DNA of 26,225 bases from Promethearchaeota archaeon. GTDB taxonomy: Archaea; Asgardarchaeota; Lokiarchaeia; Sigyniarchaeales; SOKP01. A program made the position numbers and the translations under genes. Position 1 is the stretch's first letter. Every line of letters starts with the position of its first letter. The notes beneath the pieces are model-generated. The model did not search any database. It was not told where the DNA came from and saw only the letters and a program-made list of their open reading frames with translations. Below, piece after piece: positions 2,803 to 21,729 of this stretch. The stretch is taken from contig JAEOTP010000056.1 in NCBI GenBank assembly GCA_016839765.1, forward strand, positions 1-26,225, given 5' to 3'.

Positions 2803-3546
2803 ATGAATAAAATAATTTTCTTAGGTTGTTTATCAAGTACCAAATATAAAGATACATGTGAGAATGCTATAAAAGTTATTAAATTTTTAGATAATGAATA
2901 TCAAGAGTTGGAAAATCCTCCTTGTTGTGGTGCTCTTGCCCATCAAATTGCACCAATCGAAGAAATAAGAGATCATATAAAACTTGTAAATAATTGGTTT
3001 AAAGATAATGATGTAAAAAAATTGATTACTATCTGCGCGGGTTGCTATAATTATCTTACTCGTTATTATCCTAAACATTTAGGAACAGATTTTAATATTA
3101 AAGTAATGCATTTGCTCCAATTTATAAATAGACCTGAAAATTTGAAAAAGTTGAACTTAAAATATCCTGGTAAAAAATTAAAAATATATTATCATGATGC
3201 CTGTCATTTGAGAAATGCAGAGATCCCAATTATTGATGAACCACGAAATATTATTAATTCAATCGAAGGAAACATTGTCCTCGGTGAAATGGAAAATAAT
3301 AGTTTAAATTCGCTTTGTTGTGGAGCAGGAGGGGGTGTGTATTCAATTTTTAGAGAAAGTAGTGATTTCAGTTCCAAATTAATTTTTGATCAAATGAGAA
3401 TGCCAAAAGCCTTGTTAACAGCCTGCCCATTTTGTTATACATCTCTTATAAGAATAAGGGAAGAAAATAATATAAAAACACCTGTAATTAAATTCGAAGA
3501 TTTTATTTTAAACATAATGGAAGGGGTGGATCCTATAAGTGTCTGA
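2803..3546 (+). CDS. CCG-domain Fe-S protein (LutA/GlcF/HdrD C-terminal-like)
   Basis: Two CCG domains: LGC...CCG...CAGC and YHDACH...CCG...ACPFC. Overlaps the LutB-like gene. Confidence 0.85.
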   Translation: MNKIIFLGCLSSTKYKDTCENAIKVIKFLDNEYQELENPPCCGALAHQIAPIEEIRDHIKLVNNWFKDNDVKKLITICAGCYNYLTRYYPKHLGTDFNIKVMHLLQFINRPENLKKLNLKYPGKKLKIYYHDACHLRNAEIPIIDEPRNIINSIEGNIVLGEMENNSLNSLCCGAGGGVYSIFRESSDFSSKLIFDQMRMPKALLTACPFCYTSLIRIREENNIKTPVIKFEDFILNIMEGVDPISV

Positions 3547-11223: not shown

Positions 11224-11823
11224 ATTACTAAAGATAATTTTGATAAGTTTGTAAATAAGCTTCAAAAAAAAATTATAAAAAAAGAGGTTGAAGAATATAA
11301 CGAGATTATTGTTGATTTATTCAATAATCCAAAAAATTGGGGAAAACTCCCAGAGGAAGAAATTTCAGTCTCACAATCTTATACTGGCCCTTGTAGAGAT
11401 ACAATGCAATTCTTTTTAAAAATTAATAATAATATAATTGAAAAGGCGAATTTTGTTACAGACGGTTGTGGGGCATCTGTTGCAACAGCAAGTCAAACAA
11501 CTATCCTCATTGAAGGTAAATCTTTAGATTTTGCAGAACAATTAAAACCCGAAGATGTTGATCAGGCTCTGAAAGGTTTACCGGAAGATCATAAACACTG
11601 CACAGAATTAGCGGTAAGAACTTTAAAACGCGCAATAAAAAAATATAAAGATAAACTACAGCATGGTATTAAAAATAATGAAGATTGTTATAAAGAAAGA
11701 GGAGATAGTAAAAACATTTTTAAAGAAAATAACAAAAGAATAAAAGAAATTGAACCAAAGAGGTACATCTATGGTCACGTCCCCAGCAAAATCAACTTTA
11801 AAAAATATTTTAGAAAGTCGTGA
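11224..11823 (+). CDS. NifU/IscU N-terminal-type Fe-S scaffold with C-terminal extension
   Basis: The frame is open upstream of the track's ATG at 11404 and encodes YNEIIVDLFNNPKNWG...GPCRDTM (first Cys), then DGCGAS and HKHC. Start placed at ATT 11224, 7 nt after GAGGTGA; start uncertain. Confidence 0.75.
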   Translation: MTKDNFDKFVNKLQKKIIKKEVEEYNEIIVDLFNNPKNWGKLPEEEISVSQSYTGPCRDTMQFFLKINNNIIEKANFVTDGCGASVATASQTTILIEGKSLDFAEQLKPEDVDQALKGLPEDHKHCTELAVRTLKRAIKKYKDKLQHGIKNNEDCYKERGDSKNIFKENNKRIKEIEPKRYIYGHVPSKINFKKYFRKS

Positions 11824-11828
11824 AATTA

Positions 11829-12851
11829 ATGTCAAATATTCGATTAGAAAATCAAAAAATCGAAAACTCAATTAAAGAGATAGCAAGATATTTATTTAAA
11901 GAAAAAAAAGTAGATGTAATTATTGGGTATTCAAATGGAACTGTTCCATTGAGTACTATGCCGATTTTTGTAAGAAATGAAATAGACATTAATAAATTAG
12001 TATGGAATAATTTATGTTATGCAAATTTAGCCAAGTATTTAGCCCCTCGAGTGCCACAGCTGAAAGATCCTGACGATAATAACTTAAAAGTAGGAATTAT
12101 AGCTAAAGGGTGTGTCGGTAGAGCCTTAATTCATCTGATTATAGAAAAACAAATCAATCTTAATGAGATAAAAATCATAGGAATACATTGTAATGGAATC
12201 ATTAATAGAAAGAGAATTGAAAAAGAAATTGGAGAAAAAGAGATTCTTGAATGTTTCATATTAAATGATGATATAGTTATTAAAGGAAGAAATTTTGAAC
12301 AGAAATTTCCATTCCATGAATATTTAAATGAATTATGTAAAACTTGTAAAATCAGATCTCCACCAAAATCTTCACCTCTATTAAATGTGATAATTGGAGA
12401 ATCACAAGAAATTACCTTTTTAGAAGATGAATATACAGAAATTGTTGAATTTGATGCGAAATCTCCTAAGGAAAAATGGAGATATATAAAAGATCTTTTA
12501 AGTAATTGCATAAGATGTTATGCTTGCAGAGAAGCTTGTCCTATGTGTTATTGCAATCTATGTTTTGTAGATCAAAATAAGCCCATTTGGTTCGGTAAAA
12601 CAACAGAATTATCTGATATAATAGTTTTTCATTTGGTTCGAGCAATACATCTAGCTGGCAGGTGTGTAAGTTGTGGAGCATGTAGTAGTGTATGCCCAAT
12701 GGGTATTGATTTGCATTTTATTACAAGAAAATTAGAGAAAATTGTAAAAGAGAGATTTAATTTTACCCCAGGTTTGAATCTTGAGACATTACCTCCAATG
12801 ATGTCTTTTAGCATGGAAGATGAACAAGAATTTATGTTAGATGAAGATTAA
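11829..12851 (+). CDS. FdhB/FlxD-like [4Fe-4S] protein (FrhB-related N-terminus, Hdr-associated)
   Basis: VDVIIGY, GIIAKGC, IIGIHCNG, CKTC, CIRCYACREACPMCYCNLC and HLAGRCVSCGACSSVCP. ATG at 11829 (alternative GTG at 11820). Confidence 0.78.
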   Translation: MSNIRLENQKIENSIKEIARYLFKEKKVDVIIGYSNGTVPLSTMPIFVRNEIDINKLVWNNLCYANLAKYLAPRVPQLKDPDDNNLKVGIIAKGCVGRALIHLIIEKQINLNEIKIIGIHCNGIINRKRIEKEIGEKEILECFILNDDIVIKGRNFEQKFPFHEYLNELCKTCKIRSPPKSSPLLNVIIGESQEITFLEDEYTEIVEFDAKSPKEKWRYIKDLLSNCIRCYACREACPMCYCNLCFVDQNKPIWFGKTTELSDIIVFHLVRAIHLAGRCVSCGACSSVCPMGIDLHFITRKLEKIVKERFNFTPGLNLETLPPMMSFSMEDEQEFMLDED

Positions 12852-13008
12852 ATATAGTAAAAAATGTTAGCATACCCATACATAAAAGATTAATTAGAAA
12901 ATCTAAAAAAAATACGTTTAATAAATTGAATATTATAAAAAAGAAATAAAAAAATAAAAAAATAAGTAAATTTTCTACAACTTTGAAAGAATTGAAAGAA
13001 GAGAAGAT

Positions 13009-13968
13009 ATTACGAGTAAAATTAATAAATATAAGTGGAAATATGGATTATTTTTAGGATGTGTTATTCCTAATCGTTATCCTATGCTTGAAGTTTCTAT
13101 TAGAAACGTACTAGAGCATTTGGGAGTGGAAATTTTAGATTTGCAAGGAGCTTCATGTTGCCCAGCTCCAGGAGTTTTTCGAGCTTTTCACATCCCGACA
13201 TGGTTAGTAATAGCAGCAAGAAATATTTCTATTGCTGAAGAACTCGGGGTAAATCCTATTACAGGTTGTAATGGATGCTATGGGACTCTTAGAGATGTAT
13301 GGTATGAACTTAATCATAAGCCAGAATTAAAAAAGGAAGTAAACAATGAACTTGCTAAAATTGGACGAGTTTACAAGGGTAATTTTCAACCTAAACATAT
13401 TCTTGAAGTTTTTTATCTTGATATGGGATTAGATTATATAAGAGATCATATAAAACATAATTTTACAGATTTAAAGGTTGGGGTTCATTATGGATGTCAT
13501 ATTCTTAAACCAAGCGATAAACGTCCCTGGGGTGGTGAATATGAAAGTCCTACCTTTTTTGATGAAATTGTCGAATTAACTGGAGGAAAAAGTATAGATT
13601 ATAAAGATAAATATATGTGTTGTGGAGCAGGTGGAGGCTTAAGATCAGCAGTGAAAGAGGTTGCTGCAGACTTTACACGTGAAGAACTAACTAATATGAG
13701 AGATGCAGGGGTCGATATTATTGTTGATTGCTGTCCATTCTGTCATATGCAATTAGATCTTGGACAAATTGAGGTTAATAATTTTTATAAGGATATGATC
13801 GGAGAGCCTTTCAATATTCCAGTCATTTATGTTACTCAACTTTTAGGTGTATCTTTTGGAGTTGATCCCTCTTTATTAGGACTAGTAAAAAATCACAAAT
13901 TAAAAGGAGTTTCACCTTTCATTTCTATAGATCCGTTTTTATCAATTGTAAAAAAACAGTTAATCTAG
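13009..13968 (+). CDS. hdrB: Heterodisulfide reductase subunit B
   Basis: The in-frame sequence upstream of the track's ATG encodes KYGLFLGCVIPNRYP. Also SCCPAPG, CNGCYGTL, VHYGCHILKP, CCGAGGG and CPFCHMQLD. Start placed at ATT 13009 (uncertain). Confidence 0.9.
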   Translation: MTSKINKYKWKYGLFLGCVIPNRYPMLEVSIRNVLEHLGVEILDLQGASCCPAPGVFRAFHIPTWLVIAARNISIAEELGVNPITGCNGCYGTLRDVWYELNHKPELKKEVNNELAKIGRVYKGNFQPKHILEVFYLDMGLDYIRDHIKHNFTDLKVGVHYGCHILKPSDKRPWGGEYESPTFFDEIVELTGGKSIDYKDKYMCCGAGGGLRSAVKEVAADFTREELTNMRDAGVDIIVDCCPFCHMQLDLGQIEVNNFYKDMIGEPFNIPVIYVTQLLGVSFGVDPSLLGLVKNHKLKGVSPFISIDPFLSIVKKQLI

Positions 13969-14612: not shown

Positions 14613-14951
14613 TTGAGTATGAAAAAAAAGTACGGAATTGATGGTCCTAAAAAAGGTAAATTTATAGTTGTTTTATGCTCTAAATGGTGTAAGTCTTGTA
14701 AATTGCTCTCTACACTCTTAGAAAAATTTAGAGATGAAAATTTTATTAAGATAAAAGAAATAGATATTGGTGAAAATAGCAAGTTAGCTCGAGAATTGAA
14801 TATCAATGCAGTGCCCGCTTTAATTTTTTTTAAGGATGGTAAGCTCTTAGATAAAGACATTAAAATCAATGGGGTAACACTCATTAATAGAGGAGTTATT
14901 ATTGGAGCCGTCAACGAATTAATATTGAAAGAAATTATTAAGCAAATATGA
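14613..14951 (+). CDS. Thioredoxin family protein
   Basis: WCKSC active site, EIDIGE and INAVPALIFFKDGK (cis-Pro). Start TTG 14613 or ATG 14619. Confidence 0.85.
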   Translation: MSMKKKYGIDGPKKGKFIVVLCSKWCKSCKLLSTLLEKFRDENFIKIKEIDIGENSKLARELNINAVPALIFFKDGKLLDKDIKINGVTLINRGVIIGAVNELILKEIIKQI

Positions 14952-14990: not shown

Positions 14991-15320
14991 CTAATCTATT
15001 TCTGGTAGGATTGCATTATTAGGACAAGTTTTAAAACATCTTAAACATATAATGCATTCTGAAAGATTTTTGTTCTGAAACTTAATCCATTCTTTTCCAT
15101 TTTCATCTTTTTGGAGTTCGAAGAGATTTTTAAAGCAAAAATCGCCATTTAAACAGATCTTACATAGTGTACATTTATCTAAATCAATAATAAATCCTTT
15201 TAATTTTCCTTTCTCAATAGAAATAACTTCGATTGCTCCTTGTTCGCAAACATCTACACACTTTAAACATCCTCTACATTTATCATAGTCAAAATGCTCA
15301 ATAATATAACGTAAATAAAT
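14991..15320 (-). CDS. Polyferredoxin-like [4Fe-4S] protein with three Cys motifs
   Basis: CRGCLKCVDVC, CTLCKICLNGDFC and CIICLRCFKTCP. The track's start at 15398 overlaps pyrF; the real start is probably near 15314-15320 (uncertain). Confidence 0.8.
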   Translation of the reverse strand: MYLRYIIEHFDYDKCRGCLKCVDVCEQGAIEVISIEKGKLKGFIIDLDKCTLCKICLNGDFCFKNLFELQKDENGKEWIKFQNKNLSECIICLRCFKTCPNNAILPEID

Positions 15321-15369
15321 AAGTATATTTATTTCTATTTCAAATTTACTTATAATTGAATAAAAAAAT

Positions 15370-16305
15370 ATGCTTAAATCAACGATGTTTGTTAACAAAC
15401 TAATTCAATTGATAAAAGACAAAAAAAGTGTTGTATCAATGGGGCTTGATCCCCGTATGGACAAGGAAGGAGAAATTCCTAAATATCTTATTGAACAATA
15501 CACTGACCCTAATAAGATAATTTTAGAATTTAATAAGACTTTAATCGAAAATACACATGATTTAATTCCCGTTGTAAAACCCCAAATTGCTTTTTATGAA
15601 AAATATGATGCTCTAGATGCACTAAAAGAAACTATAAACTTTGCGCATAAAAATGACTTATTGGTAATTTTAGATTCTAAACGTAATGATATTGGTACAA
15701 CTTCTAAAGCTTATGCAGATGCTACGTTTAAAATTTATAAAGCAGATGCGTGTACTTTAAACCCGTATCTAGGATTTGATAGTATCCAACCTTATATTGA
15801 GCACTATAAGGAAAAAGGATTATTTATACTTGTAAAAACATCTAATCCAAGTAGTAATGAACTTCAAAATCTGTTTAGTGTAAGGATAGATAATATTAGT
15901 AATGCTCAAATTGAAATAGAAAAAGAAAGGGTAAAATTGGTAAGAAATTATATTCATATTGCTAAACTTATTGTAGAATGGAGCAAAAATCTTTATAGTT
16001 TCTCGAATTATAACAATTTAGGCGCTGTAGTTGGCGCAACTTTCCCTCAAGAATTGAAATCAGTTAGAGATATAATAAAAAATTCGTTTATTTTAATACC
16101 AGGTTATGGTGCTCAAGGAGCTCAAGCTGAAGATATAAAGTATGGATTTCATAAGGATGGTTTGGGAGGGATTGTAAATTCTTCACGAGCTATAATTTAT
16201 TCTTACGTAAATAAAAAACAGTTTCACTCAGTTAAGTTTGGAGAGGCTGCTAGAGATGAAATTATTAAGATGAATAAAGAAATAAATAAGGAAATAGGAT
16301 TATAG
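15370..16305 (+). CDS. pyrF: Orotidine-5'-phosphate decarboxylase (subfamily 2)
   Basis: GLDP, KPQIAFYE, ILDSKRNDIGTT (DxKxxD), VKTSNP, GAVVGAT, LIPGYGAQG and NSSRAI. Start may be ATG 15385. Confidence 0.95.
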   Translation: MLKSTMFVNKLIQLIKDKKSVVSMGLDPRMDKEGEIPKYLIEQYTDPNKIILEFNKTLIENTHDLIPVVKPQIAFYEKYDALDALKETINFAHKNDLLVILDSKRNDIGTTSKAYADATFKIYKADACTLNPYLGFDSIQPYIEHYKEKGLFILVKTSNPSSNELQNLFSVRIDNISNAQIEIEKERVKLVRNYIHIAKLIVEWSKNLYSFSNYNNLGAVVGATFPQELKSVRDIIKNSFILIPGYGAQGAQAEDIKYGFHKDGLGGIVNSSRAIIYSYVNKKQFHSVKFGEAARDEIIKMNKEINKEIGL

Positions 16306-16955: not shown

Positions 16956-18932
16956 ATGGTAGAAACAAAGAGTAAAGAGATAAAAACTACTGACGAAATT
17001 AGAATTTTTGTAGCGATTTGCCAATGAGGTATTAACGTTGCTGAAATAATTGACACAAAAGCGTTATCTGAATATTCTAAAAAATTACCTAATGTTGTGG
17101 ATGCTTTAGATTATATCTCCTTATGTACTGAGCCCGGAGCAGAATTTATTAAAGAGAAAATGCTTGATGTCAATGCTAATAGACTAGTTGTTGCATCTTG
17201 CACCCCCAAGACTCATGAACCTGTTTTTAAAAGTGTATTAGAATCAATGGATTTAGATTCCTCATATTTAGAGTTTGTGAATATACGTGAACATTCGAGT
17301 TTTGTACATAGGAATGATAAAGAAGGCGCACAGAGAACAGCTGAAGATGCTGTTAAATCAGGAGTTGCAAGAGCAACAGTATTAGAAAAGATTTTAGTGA
17401 AAGAGGTGGATATTACTAAGAAGGCTTTGATTATTGGCGGTGGTGTTGCAGGGTTATCTGCTGGCATAGATCTTGCAGAGGAGGGATTTGAAGTATATTT
17501 AGTAGAAAAAAGCCCCACGATTGGAGGAAAAATGGCAATGTTAGATCGAACATTCCCCACGGACGATTGCAGTATATGAATATTGGGACCAGTCATGTTA
17601 GAATCAGCACGAACTCCTGGAATGAATATTTATACTTATAGTGAAATTGAAGATGTCTCTGGATTTGTAGGAAACTTTGAAGTAAAAATTCGCAAAAAAG
17701 CTAGGTATGTAAACAATGATTGTAATGGTTGCGGTGCCTGTTATGAGGTGTGTCCCGCATACGGGTATGATGAATTCAATGAAGGAATGAATCCTAGGAA
17801 GGCAATTTATGCATCGTTTACGCAAGCTGTTCCCTCAATAGCACAAATCGATATGACTAAATGTATTAAGTGTGGATTATGCGAGAGTGCTTGCGAATTA
17901 AATGCCATAGATTTTGATCAAGAAGAGGAAATAATTGAGATTGAAGTCGGTTCAATAATAGTAGCAACTGGTTGGGATGAATATGAACCTGAAACGGGAT
18001 ATTTAGGCTACAATGTCTATCCTAACGTTATAACACAATTGAAACTTGAAAGAATACTAGCTCCTAATGGACCAACTTTTGGCCATCTTGTGAGACCCTC
18101 TGACGGAAAGAAACCTAAAAATGTCTTATTTATACAATGCGTTGGTTCAAGGGATCTAACTAAGCAAACTTACTGTAGTGCGGGAGTATGCTGTATGATA
18201 TCTATTAAAAATACAAAACTAATAAAGCAACATCTACCTGATGTAGATATAACTGTGGCATATATGGATATCAGGGCTGCTGGAAAAGATTATGAGGAAT
18301 ATTTTACAGCTTCAAGGAAAGAAGGTATAAAGTATGTAAGAACTAATATCTCAAAAATTCATGAGGATCCTGAAACTCATAATCTTAAAGTAATTTTACA
18401 AAATACGCTTAGTACTGCAGGATTAAAAGAATTTGAGTATGATCTGATTGTGCTTTCATGTGCAATGGTACCTCCAAAAGGCATTGAAAAAATTGAAAGA
18501 ATATTGAAGTTAGAAACAAGTCAAGATGGATTTTTCAAGGAATTTCATTCAAGATTAAACCCAATTGATACAAAAATCCCCGGAATAGCCCTTGCTGGAG
18601 TAAGTCAAGGACCTAAGTCTATTGCTGAATCTATTGCTCAGGGAAGAGCTGCTGCTTCATCTTTAGCAAGACTAATGAGTAAAGATAAATATCGAATTCT
18701 CCTAATAAGAGCAAATGTGGATAAAGAATTATGCGCGAAATGTGGGTTATGTGAATTAAATTGTCCCTATGATGCTATTAAAATAGAATCTGATGGCGCT
18801 GAAGTAAATGAAATATTGTGTAGAGGATGTGGTTCATGTTTGGCCAATTGTCCTTCTGAAGCGATTACTTTAATGTACTATCGCGAACCCCAATACGAAA
18901 AACAAATAGATGCTATTCTTGAGGAGATATAA
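16956..18932 (+). CDS. hdrA: Heterodisulfide reductase subunit A, selenoprotein (Sec24, Sec208; 658 aa)
   Basis: Single frame from ATG 16956. TGA 17025-17027 lies in IFVAICQ-U-GINV (consensus ICHCG) and TGA 17577-17579 in FPTDDCSI-U-ILGP (consensus DCSxCIL). Also GGGVAG FAD motif, four CxxCxxCxxxC motifs, IQCVGSRD, CSAGVCC and GPKSI. Confidence 0.95.
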
Positions 18933-18945
18933 AGAGGCGAGCTAA

Positions 18946-19404
18946 ATGACAACTGAAAATAATATTAAGATTCTAGCATTTATGTGCTGGAAATGAGGTT
19001 ATGGAGCGGGAGATATGGCTGGTACTATACGAGCACAATATCCCGCAACAATCAGACCAATTAGAATAAATTGTACTGGTAGAGTAACGCCTAGTCTTAT
19101 GATGCGAGCAATTGGAAAGGGTGCCGATGGAGTACTCGTAGCTGGTTGATATGAAGGGGAATGTGATTATGAAACAGGTAATCTAGTAGCAGCAAAAAAT
19201 GTGGAATTTACTAAAGAAGTGTTAAAAGCAACAGGAATATCCCCTGAAAGAATACAAATGTTTCATTGTAGTGCTGCCGAAGGTCAGAGATTTCAAGAAG
19301 AAGTAACTCGCGTCTCAGAAATAATTGAAAATCTGGGGAAAAATCCATTGAAAGATTCTTTAAGGTCAGAAGTTAATAAAAAAGAAAAAAAACCGAATGA
19401 ATGA
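18946..19404 (+). CDS. mvhD: MvhD/VhuD [2Fe-2S] hydrogenase delta subunit, selenoprotein (Sec17, Sec68; 152 aa)
   Basis: From ATG 18946: ILAFMCWK-U-GYGAGDMAG...IRINCTGRV...GADGVLVAG-U-YEGECDY...ERIQMFHCSAAEG. TGA at 18994-18996 and 19147-19149 occupy conserved Cys positions. Confidence 0.95.
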
Positions 19405-19436
19405 ATCTTGTAAGGTAAATCTTTGTTACAAGATGA
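19401..19436 (+). promoter_or_regulatory. Eukaryote-like SECIS element (AUGA-N12-AA-N16-GA)
   Basis: AUGA 19401-19404; perfect 9-bp stem ATCTTGTAA (19405-19413)/TTACAAGAT (19426-19434); apical AAA 19417-19419; GA 19435-19436. Lies directly 3' of two Sec genes. Confidence 0.75.
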
Positions 19437-19463
19437 CGAACCATAAAGCAATGGTTTCGGGAA
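19433..19463 (+). promoter_or_regulatory. Second SECIS-like hairpin overlapping the first
   Basis: AUGA 19433-19436; stem CGAACCAT/ATGGTTTCG with one bulge; loop AAAGCA; GGAA 19460-19463. Confidence 0.55.
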
Positions 19464-19641: not shown

Positions 19642-20298
19642 ATGGGTGAAGCTCCTAAAGGAGAAATTTCAGCATCAAAAGTGATTGCCTTCATTGGAAT
19701 GCTATTCACAGTTTATTTTGCTATGATTTTTTTTTATAACGTTACTCTTTTCACAGGAATATTTGTACTTTGGGGAATAATCTGTCTATTGATTGCATTC
19801 TTAATCTTTATTACTTTAGGACTAATTAGTTTTGGACCTTTAAGCAAAATAACTTATCAATGGTGGATACTACTTATCTTTGGAGCAGTTTTAGTGTTAA
19901 TCGCATACTTTTATATAAGCTATTATTTACCTGCTATTCTAATTTTGATGGCAGCCGTCATTGAACTGATAATGCAAAAGAAACCTTATAAAGCTTCCAA
20001 AATGGTTGCAATCGTAGGCGCTGGTTTTGCAGGGTATGAATGTGTAGTATTGATGTTATCTGGAATTACTTTATATATTGTAAATGCTGTTTTCGGTTTG
20101 ATTCTAATCATTATTCTACTTCTGCTTATTTTTGAAGTAGTAGATTTCAAAATCTTTAATTATTCTTGGTGGGTTGTTTTACTAATAGGATTCGTTATCT
20201 TTACTTGGATATCACCATATGCTGCCGGTTATCCAGTCCTTGGTTATGGAGGAATGATCATTTTAATAGCCTTTATACTCATATTAATGGCATTCTAA
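19642..20298 (+). CDS. Hypothetical polytopic membrane protein with internal duplication (about 2x4 TM)
   Basis: Highly hydrophobic; repeated motifs ASKVIAFIG/ASKMVAIVG and YQWWILLIFG/YSWWVVLLIG. Confidence 0.8.
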   Translation: MGEAPKGEISASKVIAFIGMLFTVYFAMIFFYNVTLFTGIFVLWGIICLLIAFLIFITLGLISFGPLSKITYQWWILLIFGAVLVLIAYFYISYYLPAILILMAAVIELIMQKKPYKASKMVAIVGAGFAGYECVVLMLSGITLYIVNAVFGLILIIILLLLIFEVVDFKIFNYSWWVVLLIGFVIFTWISPYAAGYPVLGYGGMIILIAFILILMAF

Positions 20299-20319
20299 AT
20301 CAATTAATTAATCAATTAA

Positions 20320-20340
20320 TTTTTTTTTTATTTTTTGTTT
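20320..20340 (+). terminator. Putative oligo-T archaeal terminator
   Basis: T10 and T6 runs about 20 nt after the stop codon. Confidence 0.4.
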
Positions 20341-20421
20341 CATACAAACTGATTTTACAAGTAATTTTTAATTTTAAAATTAATTAATAGAAATATTAAT
20401 CTAGACTATTGTGAAATGTAA

Positions 20422-21729
20422 ATGGGTAAAAATATACTTGCAAATACTGAAAATCAATTTTTAAAGGCTGAAAAACTATTCAAAGCCAGACAATTTAAGA
20501 AAGCTGCAAAAAATTATTACTCTGCCGGGAATAAATTTTTAAACTTGGATAAATATGAAGAAGCTATAATTAGTTTTATTAATGGCGCAAATTCATTTAT
20601 AGAATTGGATAGAATCCAGTCAAGTTTGGATTTATTAAGAATGGCAGGGGATACTTCCTTACTTAACGACGATTACTTAAAGGCGAATGAAATTTTTAAA
20701 AAGGCAGTAGAATTCATCCCAAAATTGAGAAGCAAAGGTGCTCGGAATAATTATTATGTATTATTTTCTGTTCTTTCTTATTTATGCTTATTTACGAAAG
20801 TAAAACAAGAAGAGGGGCTAAATTTTATTAAAAAATTACAGAACAAAGTTGAGAGTTCTTATTTCAAAGAACATCCTTTAATTGTTCTGGTTACTGAATT
20901 GACAATTTGCTTACGCGATGAGAATCCAAAATATATGGAAAAAATTCAAAATAATCTTCATAATTATGAATTCAGTGATGCTGAATTAAAATTGATGAAA
21001 GAAATTCTTTTTATTGTGAATCTACAACTTTCTTTAAAATCAGAATTACATTTGGACAAGGAATTATATACTACAAAGGAGAATATTAGTTTAAAAGTAA
21101 TTGTTGATACCAAACCTTTATTACCAGTTACCCAAAACCCTTTTTTTAACTATGGAATTGAGAAATTTGAAATAATCAAAATTAACCTCCATTTATCAGA
21201 CAATTTAAGTTCAAGTAGGAAACCGGTGATTCCTTTTGATTTGGAAATTGGGAAAACCCATGAACTAGATTTTATAGTTAAACCCCATTTTCAGCTTGAT
21301 AATCCTTTTATAGGACCTTTATCTTTAACATGTGAAATAAATAATAACTTAATATTTATCTATGAAACAGTAGAAGTTATACCAAACCTAATTTCACCAC
21401 CTCCAACTCTGGAAATTTCTACAAAAAATTTGAGACCTCCTCTTATAGAACAGACTTTTCCATTAGAAATCCTAGTACAAAATCAAAGTCAGGGTGAAGC
21501 ATTGGATGTAAATATTGATGCTGAATTTCCTGAGCAATTAAAATTAATGCGAGGTACAACAACTAAAAAAATTTATTCATTGAGATCAAATGAAGAAATC
21601 AGATGGGAAGTAAATCTTAAGCCACTTGAAGCAGGAGATTATGTTGTTAAACTTATAATTAAGTTTAAAGATCCAGATCAAAATCTCATAGAAGAGACTA
21701 AAGAATTCCCCATCTCGATAAAGTTATAG
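20422..21729 (+). CDS. Hypothetical protein: SNAP/TPR-like alpha-solenoid plus C-terminal Ig-like beta-sandwich domains
   Basis: Helical repeats (FKKAAKNYYSAG, YEEAIISFINGA, YLKANEIFKKA), then beta-rich segments (FPLEILVQNQSQGEALDVNI, WEVNLKPLEAGDYVVKLIIKFKD). Confidence 0.7.
   Translation: MGKNILANTENQFLKAEKLFKARQFKKAAKNYYSAGNKFLNLDKYEEAIISFINGANSFIELDRIQSSLDLLRMAGDTSLLNDDYLKANEIFKKAVEFIPKLRSKGARNNYYVLFSVLSYLCLFTKVKQEEGLNFIKKLQNKVESSYFKEHPLIVLVTELTICLRDENPKYMEKIQNNLHNYEFSDAELKLMKEILFIVNLQLSLKSELHLDKELYTTKENISLKVIVDTKPLLPVTQNPFFNYGIEKFEIIKINLHLSDNLSSSRKPVIPFDLEIGKTHELDFIVKPHFQLDNPFIGPLSLTCEINNNLIFIYETVEVIPNLISPPPTLEISTKNLRPPLIEQTFPLEILVQNQSQGEALDVNIDAEFPEQLKLMRGTTTKKIYSLRSNEEIRWEVNLKPLEAGDYVVKLIIKFKDPDQNLIEETKEFPISIKL

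Follow-up and report, generated by a model that had tools for sequence, protein, structure and literature searches.

A single 3′ SECIS element and four predicted selenocysteine codons in an Asgard hdrA-vhuD gene pair

The hdrA and vhuD genes of a Promethearchaeota archaeon of the Loki-type Asgard group are most probably intact selenoprotein genes carried on one bicistronic mRNA, with four in-frame UGA codons predicted to be recoded via a single eukaryote-like SECIS at the 3′ end. The pair lies in a window of 26,225 nt (the whole stretch of DNA that was analyzed), which is contig C35 of a 3.32-Mb metagenome-assembled genome (MAG) with 29.7% GC and an estimated completeness of 96%. The shared-SECIS arrangement of hdrA and vhuD is already known from Mariotti et al. 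(2016, PMC4989117) and was extended to Asgard archaea in general in 2024 (PMC11227280). The genes and UGA codons of the locus are:

16956..18932, plus strand: hdrA, 658 aa with TGA read as U; stop codon TAA at 18930-18932
17025..17027, plus strand: UGA, predicted Sec24 of HdrA; counterpart in 5ODC_A is Cys13; distance to the downstream SECIS AUGA 2376 nt
17577..17579, plus strand: UGA, predicted Sec208 of HdrA (canonical Sec site); counterpart in 5ODC_A is Cys197; distance to the downstream SECIS 1824 nt
18933..18945, plus strand: intercistronic spacer, 13 nt; Shine-Dalgarno-like AGAGG directly after the hdrA stop
18946..19404, plus strand: vhuD/mvhD, 152 aa with TGA read as U; stop codon TGA at 19402-19404
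18994..18996, plus strand: UGA, predicted Sec17 of VhuD; counterpart in 9sfi_K is X; distance to the downstream SECIS 407 nt
19147..19149, plus strand: UGA, predicted Sec68 of VhuD; counterpart in 9sfi_K is X; distance to the downstream SECIS 254 nt

Translation of 16956-19404 with table 11 gives fragments only, and reading TGA as U gives two whole frames. An earlier note on this DNA had taken the fragments of the open reading frame track for two intact genes separated by 13 nt, and the frames of 658 and 152 residues and the spacer at 18933-18945 bear this out. A domain search places Fer4 and FAD domains in the HdrA product, and residues 13-655 match 5ODC_A, the solved structure of Methanothermococcus HdrA, with an E of 2e-202. 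The NCBIfam HdrA2 model scores the same product at 759 bits, under the model's 1100-bit cut-off; along the 777 positions of this model the match of the hdrA product ends at 643 and the VhuD product covers 645-773. Pfam FlpD (PF02662) is found in the vhuD product with an E of 3e-43. The predicted product of 16956-18932 is HdrA, and that of 18946-19404 is VhuD/MvhD.

The gap between hdrA and the divergent gene upstream of it is 42 nt. Farther upstream on the same strand (window 11820-13968), one gene encodes a Fer4 protein of 343 aa and another a CCG-domain protein of 294 aa (HdrC/HdrB-like or HdrD-like); they are followed by a thioredoxin-like frame that ends at 14951. Other Hdr-related redox genes are therefore located near the hdrA-vhuD pair, and a pyrF-like gene and the divergent gene stand between them and hdrA. 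For the two genes 3′ of the SECIS (window 19642-21729; 218 and 435 aa), Pfam gave no match at E 1e-5.

The TGAs at 17025, 17577, 18994, and 19147 were said in the earlier note to fall exactly at conserved Cys positions. Alignments with 5ODC_A, 9sfi_K, and the paralogues agree that these are conserved Cys/Sec positions; the two X residues of 9sfi_K are presumably its Sec sites. The paralogue alignment comprised 12 hdrA loci of the same genome, seven of them with a separate mvhD. In the Cys-type paralogues, HdrA column 24 and both VhuD Sec columns are occupied by Cys. At HdrA column 208 the closer paralogues have Cys, and the more divergent fused forms are unaligned there. TGA is otherwise an ordinary stop codon, as the note had maintained in arguing against global recoding: it ends the window gene 2803-3546 (TGA 3544-3546), the thioredoxin-like frame (TGA 14949-14951), and 167 of the 1370 genome frames of at least 300 codons (12%). 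A ferredoxin-like frame on the minus strand (14991-15503) has an in-frame TGA within a low-complexity 5′ extension and was rejected as a Sec candidate.

The element behind vhuD consists of the following parts:

19391..19462, plus strand: whole SECIS element, match of covariance model R1, 77.3 bits
19393..19397, plus strand: 5′ arm of helix P1, CCGAA; pairs with 19456-19460
19401..19436, plus strand: predicted lokiSECIS core, made up of AUGA (19401-19404), helix, apical loop, and GA (19435-19436)
19405-19413/19426-19434, plus strand: 9-bp helix, perfect pairing
19414-19425, plus strand: 12-nt apical loop, GGUAAAUCUUUG
19440..19455, plus strand: hairpin P3, ACCAU / AUGGU with loop AAAGCA, within the 3′ strand of the junction
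19456..19460, plus strand: 3′ arm of helix P1, UUCGG

Covariance model R1 was built on 60 distinct elements, the window's own included, and detects lokiSECIS-type elements only. A scan of the window with filters off returned a single element (77.3 bits, E 3e-17) with a runner-up at 11.8 bits, in line with the earlier claim that the only SECIS-like structure lies after mvhD. Eight of the nine base pairs of the helix are altered on both sides in the 60-element alignment. The helix covariation score was reached by none of 500 shuffles, and slid registers came nowhere near it. AUGA and GA are invariant over the 60 sequences with the exception of one GUGA. The vhuD stop codon, TGA 19402-19404, falls within the AUGA of the core. 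The apical loop GGUAAAUCUUUG keeps the AAA and the last G, begins with GGU, and ends in UG rather than AG; the same loop is present in locus L019 and a near variant, AGAGAAAUCUUUG, in L022. The predicted core shape is that of the lokiSECIS as defined by Mariotti et al. (PMC4989117). An Rfam search over the whole window with E up to 10 gave four chance-level matches and no SECIS family, and by the curated Rfam models the element lies outside the eukaryotic SECIS families. Existing SECIS tools were reported to fail on Loki elements as well (PMC4989117).

Two further helices surround this core. The 3′ region folded alone formed two separate hairpins, the second of which extended to CGAACCAU/AUGGUUUCG, and this fold was overturned by the 60-locus comparison. 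The outer bases of the second hairpin pair with the CCGAA located 5′ of AUGA, so this hairpin was no longer read as a terminator or as a second SECIS in tandem. The resulting lower helix P1 is also predicted by RNAalifold on its own. P1 is nearly invariant in orthologues, and its pairing is formed by other sequences in L085 (GCGA/UCGC) and in the elements on contigs C33 (UCUGA/UCAGA) and C43 (CUCCC/GGGGG). Hairpin P3 (19440-19444 paired with 19451-19455) is likewise accompanied by changes on both sides in the compared elements, and a conserved GAC stands between the 3′ GA of the core and P3. The junction comparison included L100, L101, L102, L103, and L105. By eye, the vhuU element of the same genome apparently has the same layout with other sequences; the C12 element is less clear. 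It is possible, although we hold this tentatively and on comparative grounds, that the Asgard SECIS is a three-helix junction in which P1 closes the kink-turn hairpin and P3 follows GAC, and not a simple hairpin. If the extra helices are needed, they might offer a dock for an Asgard SECIS-binding factor or aid action over 2.4 kb and across the cistron boundary. In their text, the 2016 and 2024 papers on Asgard and Loki elements cover only the core, upper helix, loop, and a generic lower stem (PMC4989117, PMC11227280); the P1/P3 junction is absent from that text and may be new. A short extra stem and a GAC trinucleotide are mentioned for Methanococcales VhuD in the text of the SECIS literature compared here.

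The comparison set consisted of 80 related loci, and the closest relatives of the window are all Promethearchaeota (Asgard) MAGs. The loci are related, so counts over them are not independent events. In all 80, vhuD contains two TGAs at columns matching those of the window, and hdrA is directly upstream of vhuD wherever the contig extends that far. Full-length hdrA copies contain one to four in-frame TGAs; both UGAs of the window hdrA are kept in nearly all full-length orthologues and the canonical site in all of them, which answers in the affirmative whether the TGAs are conserved in orthologues. The covariance model was run over the 80 loci with up to 3 kb of flank, about 20 of them outside its training set. 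One SECIS was detected in each, always at the vhuD end, with one match clipped by the contig end. The model found none in or before hdrA in the 80 loci, and the sole further match, of 20 bits, was in L073, some 1 kb farther downstream. The SECIS of about 18 of the 80 loci had escaped a simple motif scan owing to helices with two mismatches, and the covariance model recovered all of them. In the loci placed by the motif scan, AUGA is offset from the vhuD stop by -1 to +29 nt.

The junction between the two genes is conserved as well. In most of 79 related loci AGAGG(T/C)G lies right behind the hdrA stop with the vhuD start about 7 nt farther on, and the motif reads AGAGGTG in most of the 79. The hdrA stop codon in these 79 loci is TAG in 45, TAA in 34, and TGA in none, and the vhuD stop is TGA in 17 of 81 loci. 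According to Mariotti et al., a UGA ending hdrA would be recoded (PMC4989117); the absence of TGA from all 79 hdrA stops repeats this argument on a larger set. A codon alignment of 65 full-length hdrA orthologues was used to look for a hidden element within hdrA. The profile of synonymous-codon identity was flat with no signal near either UGA, and identity rose only at codons 1-15 and at codons 640-658, the latter adjoining the vhuD ribosome site.

The genome was searched for the Sec machinery, and every component was located. The tRNA-Sec gene (C34:4361-4453) is 200 nt from SepSecS (377 bits). PSTK is full length and scores 167 bits, below the curated NCBIfam cut-off, and SelD has one in-frame TGA that corresponds to Sec in the HGUSCK motif. 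The best PDB match of SelB/EFSec is Methanococcus maripaludis SelB (E 7e-49). The EFSec/SelB gene appears to be broken across two contig starts, C75:5-1114 and C34:1-123, the latter with the first residues. C34 also carries tRNA-Sec and SepSecS, so C34 and C75 probably join into a Sec-machinery cluster. The predicted archaeal/eukaryotic Sec-decoding gene set (tRNA-Sec, PSTK, SepSecS, EFSec/SelB, and SelD) is complete in this genome.

The same genome provides an internal control. Covariance model R1 detects seven elements genome-wide. Three are located behind UGA-containing hdrA-vhuD pairs, with two plus two UGAs in the window, two plus two on C59, and four plus two on C43; the other four follow a solo hdrA, vhuU, and two small UGA proteins. 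The solo hdrA (C33:15242-17344, L100) contains two in-frame UGAs, has no vhuD behind it, and is followed immediately after its stop codon by a SECIS of its own; it shows that the same predicted element type would be able to serve hdrA alone. The four UGA-bearing hdrA loci have one SECIS each, and both features are absent from the eight Cys-type hdrA/mvhD paralogues or fusions; UGA and SECIS thus co-occur without exception.

The two small UGA proteins are separate from these loci. The frame at C20:10364-10893 (L104) has 154 codons with two adjacent in-frame UGAs (GCUU) and a SECIS match of 32.7 bits, and its protein is outside the five classic Asgard selenoprotein families. The frame at C12:3547-3892 (L103) encodes a small, apparently membrane-anchored protein with one UGA in a GGGUPCP motif and a SECIS match of 49 bits; this protein is possibly a short selenoprotein of Prx-like or thiol-oxidoreductase-like type.

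We infer co-transcription, Sec insertion, and SECIS action across the cistron boundary from these sequence comparisons. In the proposed mechanism, hdrA and vhuD would be transcribed as a bicistronic mRNA with the single SECIS at its 3′ end. The SECIS, with its predicted AUGA...GA kink-turn core, 9-bp helix, and A-containing apical loop, would act with tRNA-Sec and the archaeal EFSec/SelB to make ribosomes read UGA as selenocysteine at two positions in hdrA and two in vhuD. Translation of hdrA would terminate at its TAA, which is not recodable, and vhuD would be begun anew from the Shine-Dalgarno site right behind that codon. The fifth UGA, the vhuD stop inside the SECIS core, would terminate because it is too close to the SECIS for recoding. 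An extra vhuD-only mRNA may also arise from an internal promoter.

Other explanations of the locus were weighed against this mechanism. Because the sequence comes from a metagenome-assembled genome, the TGAs could in principle be assembly errors or pseudogene lesions, or they could reflect general UGA reassignment. This is exceedingly unlikely given the TGAs that 80 independent assemblies share at these columns, the use of TGA as the terminator of those 167 of 1370 long frames and of at least two window genes, and the occurrence of in-frame UGA only where a SECIS follows. Transcription of the two genes separately, with mere adjacency of hdrA and vhuD and poor decoding of the hdrA UGAs, is very improbable. 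Archaeal promoters are short and AT-rich and could hide in a 30% GC genome, but an hdrA mRNA that lacked the SECIS would yield 23-residue products, and yet nearly every full-length orthologue retains both UGAs and all retain the canonical one. The conserved 13-nt spacer, the Shine-Dalgarno motif right at the hdrA stop, and the avoidance of a TGA stop by hdrA in 79 of 79 loci also argue against separate transcripts.

A signal of its own for hdrA, located in the coding region, in the 5′ leader, or within vhuD, would leave the 3′ SECIS to vhuD alone. Bacterial SECIS and eukaryotic Sec-redefinition elements do sit inside coding sequence, and a signal of a type other than lokiSECIS would escape the covariance model; if it had no conservation trace it would evade the synonymous-site test too. 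The solo hdrA on C33 has its own SECIS, but that element is of the same type and is placed at the 3′ end of the gene. The window scan with filters off produced no second match above 11.8 bits, the scan of the 80 loci gave no match within hdrA or before it, the synonymous profile of hdrA is flat near both UGAs and rises at the gene ends only, and a leader element would have just 42 nt before the divergent gene. A separate hdrA signal is therefore considered very improbable, and a bicistronic hdrA-vhuD mRNA served by one 3′ SECIS is the preferred reading. The operon-wide search for a separate hdrA SECIS of the lokiSECIS type came back empty in the window and in all 80 loci.

The earlier note offered the sharing of one SECIS across cistrons as its own idea. 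The sequence-level predictions made from that idea hold, but the idea itself is the stated conclusion of Mariotti et al. (PMC4989117). The window proteins have also been catalogued: entry Lokiarchaeia_GCA_016839765_U in the supplement of Huang, Xiao, and Zhang (2024, PMC11227280) equals the window VhuD over 152 of 152 residues with X at 17 and 68. As far as the excerpt of that supplement extends, the HdrA entry GCA_016839765_U_2 equals the window HdrA over about 96 N-terminal residues with X at 24, and the next VhuD entry of GCA_016839765 starts like the C43 paralogue. These matches make the finding known down to the gene. With the arrangement in print since 2016 and the proteins in the 2024 catalogue, the window adds no new kind of biology. 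The locus remains a case, from the archaeal lineage that is closest to eukaryotes, in which one RNA signal would redefine several stop codons spread across two genes and more than 2 kb. In practical terms it offers a clean and fully annotated example whose own genome supplies the controls: three Sec-type pairs, a solo hdrA followed by a SECIS of its own, and eight paralogues of the Cys type. This set could guide a reporter or proteomic test, and the locus also puts on record two further conserved helices surrounding the core of the SECIS.

The closest known systems are the HdrA-VhuD pairs of Lokiarchaeota (PMC4989117). A single lokiSECIS was described downstream of VhuD, HdrA and VhuD were considered most likely translated off one polycistronic mRNA, and one lokiSECIS was proposed to suffice for as many as six UGAs across about 2 kb. 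The window shares with these pairs the gene order, the very short spacer, a multi-Sec HdrA that includes the canonical site, two Sec in VhuD, one AUGA/9-bp/GA element after VhuD, and an hdrA that never ends in UGA. A UGA stop overlapping the AUGA core was described for VhuU.1 in the same paper. The window differs in having four UGAs compared with up to six, a 12-nt loop (GGUAAAUCUUUG) compared with an A-rich 11-nt consensus ending in AG, and a conserved lower helix and 3′ hairpin, neither of which the 2016 text has for Loki elements. The Asgard selenoproteome catalogue, in which hdrA and frhD share one eSECIS-like structure (PMC11227280), has no gene-level difference from the window and models the core, upper stem, loop, and a generic lower stem.

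VhuD and HdrA of Methanococcales and Methanopyrus belong to the same enzyme complex and have the same Sec positions, and the Methanococcales VhuD SECIS is flanked by AUGA and GAC (PMC4989117). Unlike the window, these archaea have a euryarchaeal GAA_A-bulge SECIS and an HdrA with a single Sec; a separate SECIS for Methanococcales hdrA is implied by the 2016 discussion (PMC4989117). SBP2 was not found in Lokiarchaeota (PMC4989117). The predicted window element resembles eukaryotic type I SECIS in its AUGA...GA kink-turn core, the A residues of the apical loop, and its 3′ location, and differs from them in its shorter helix (9 bp) and in having no Rfam SECIS match. Multi-UGA mRNAs such as SelP share with the locus, as predicted, long-range action on several UGAs and a minimal distance below which a UGA stop escapes recoding, whereas the window mRNA would differ from eukaryotic mRNAs in being bicistronic with a Shine-Dalgarno-led restart.
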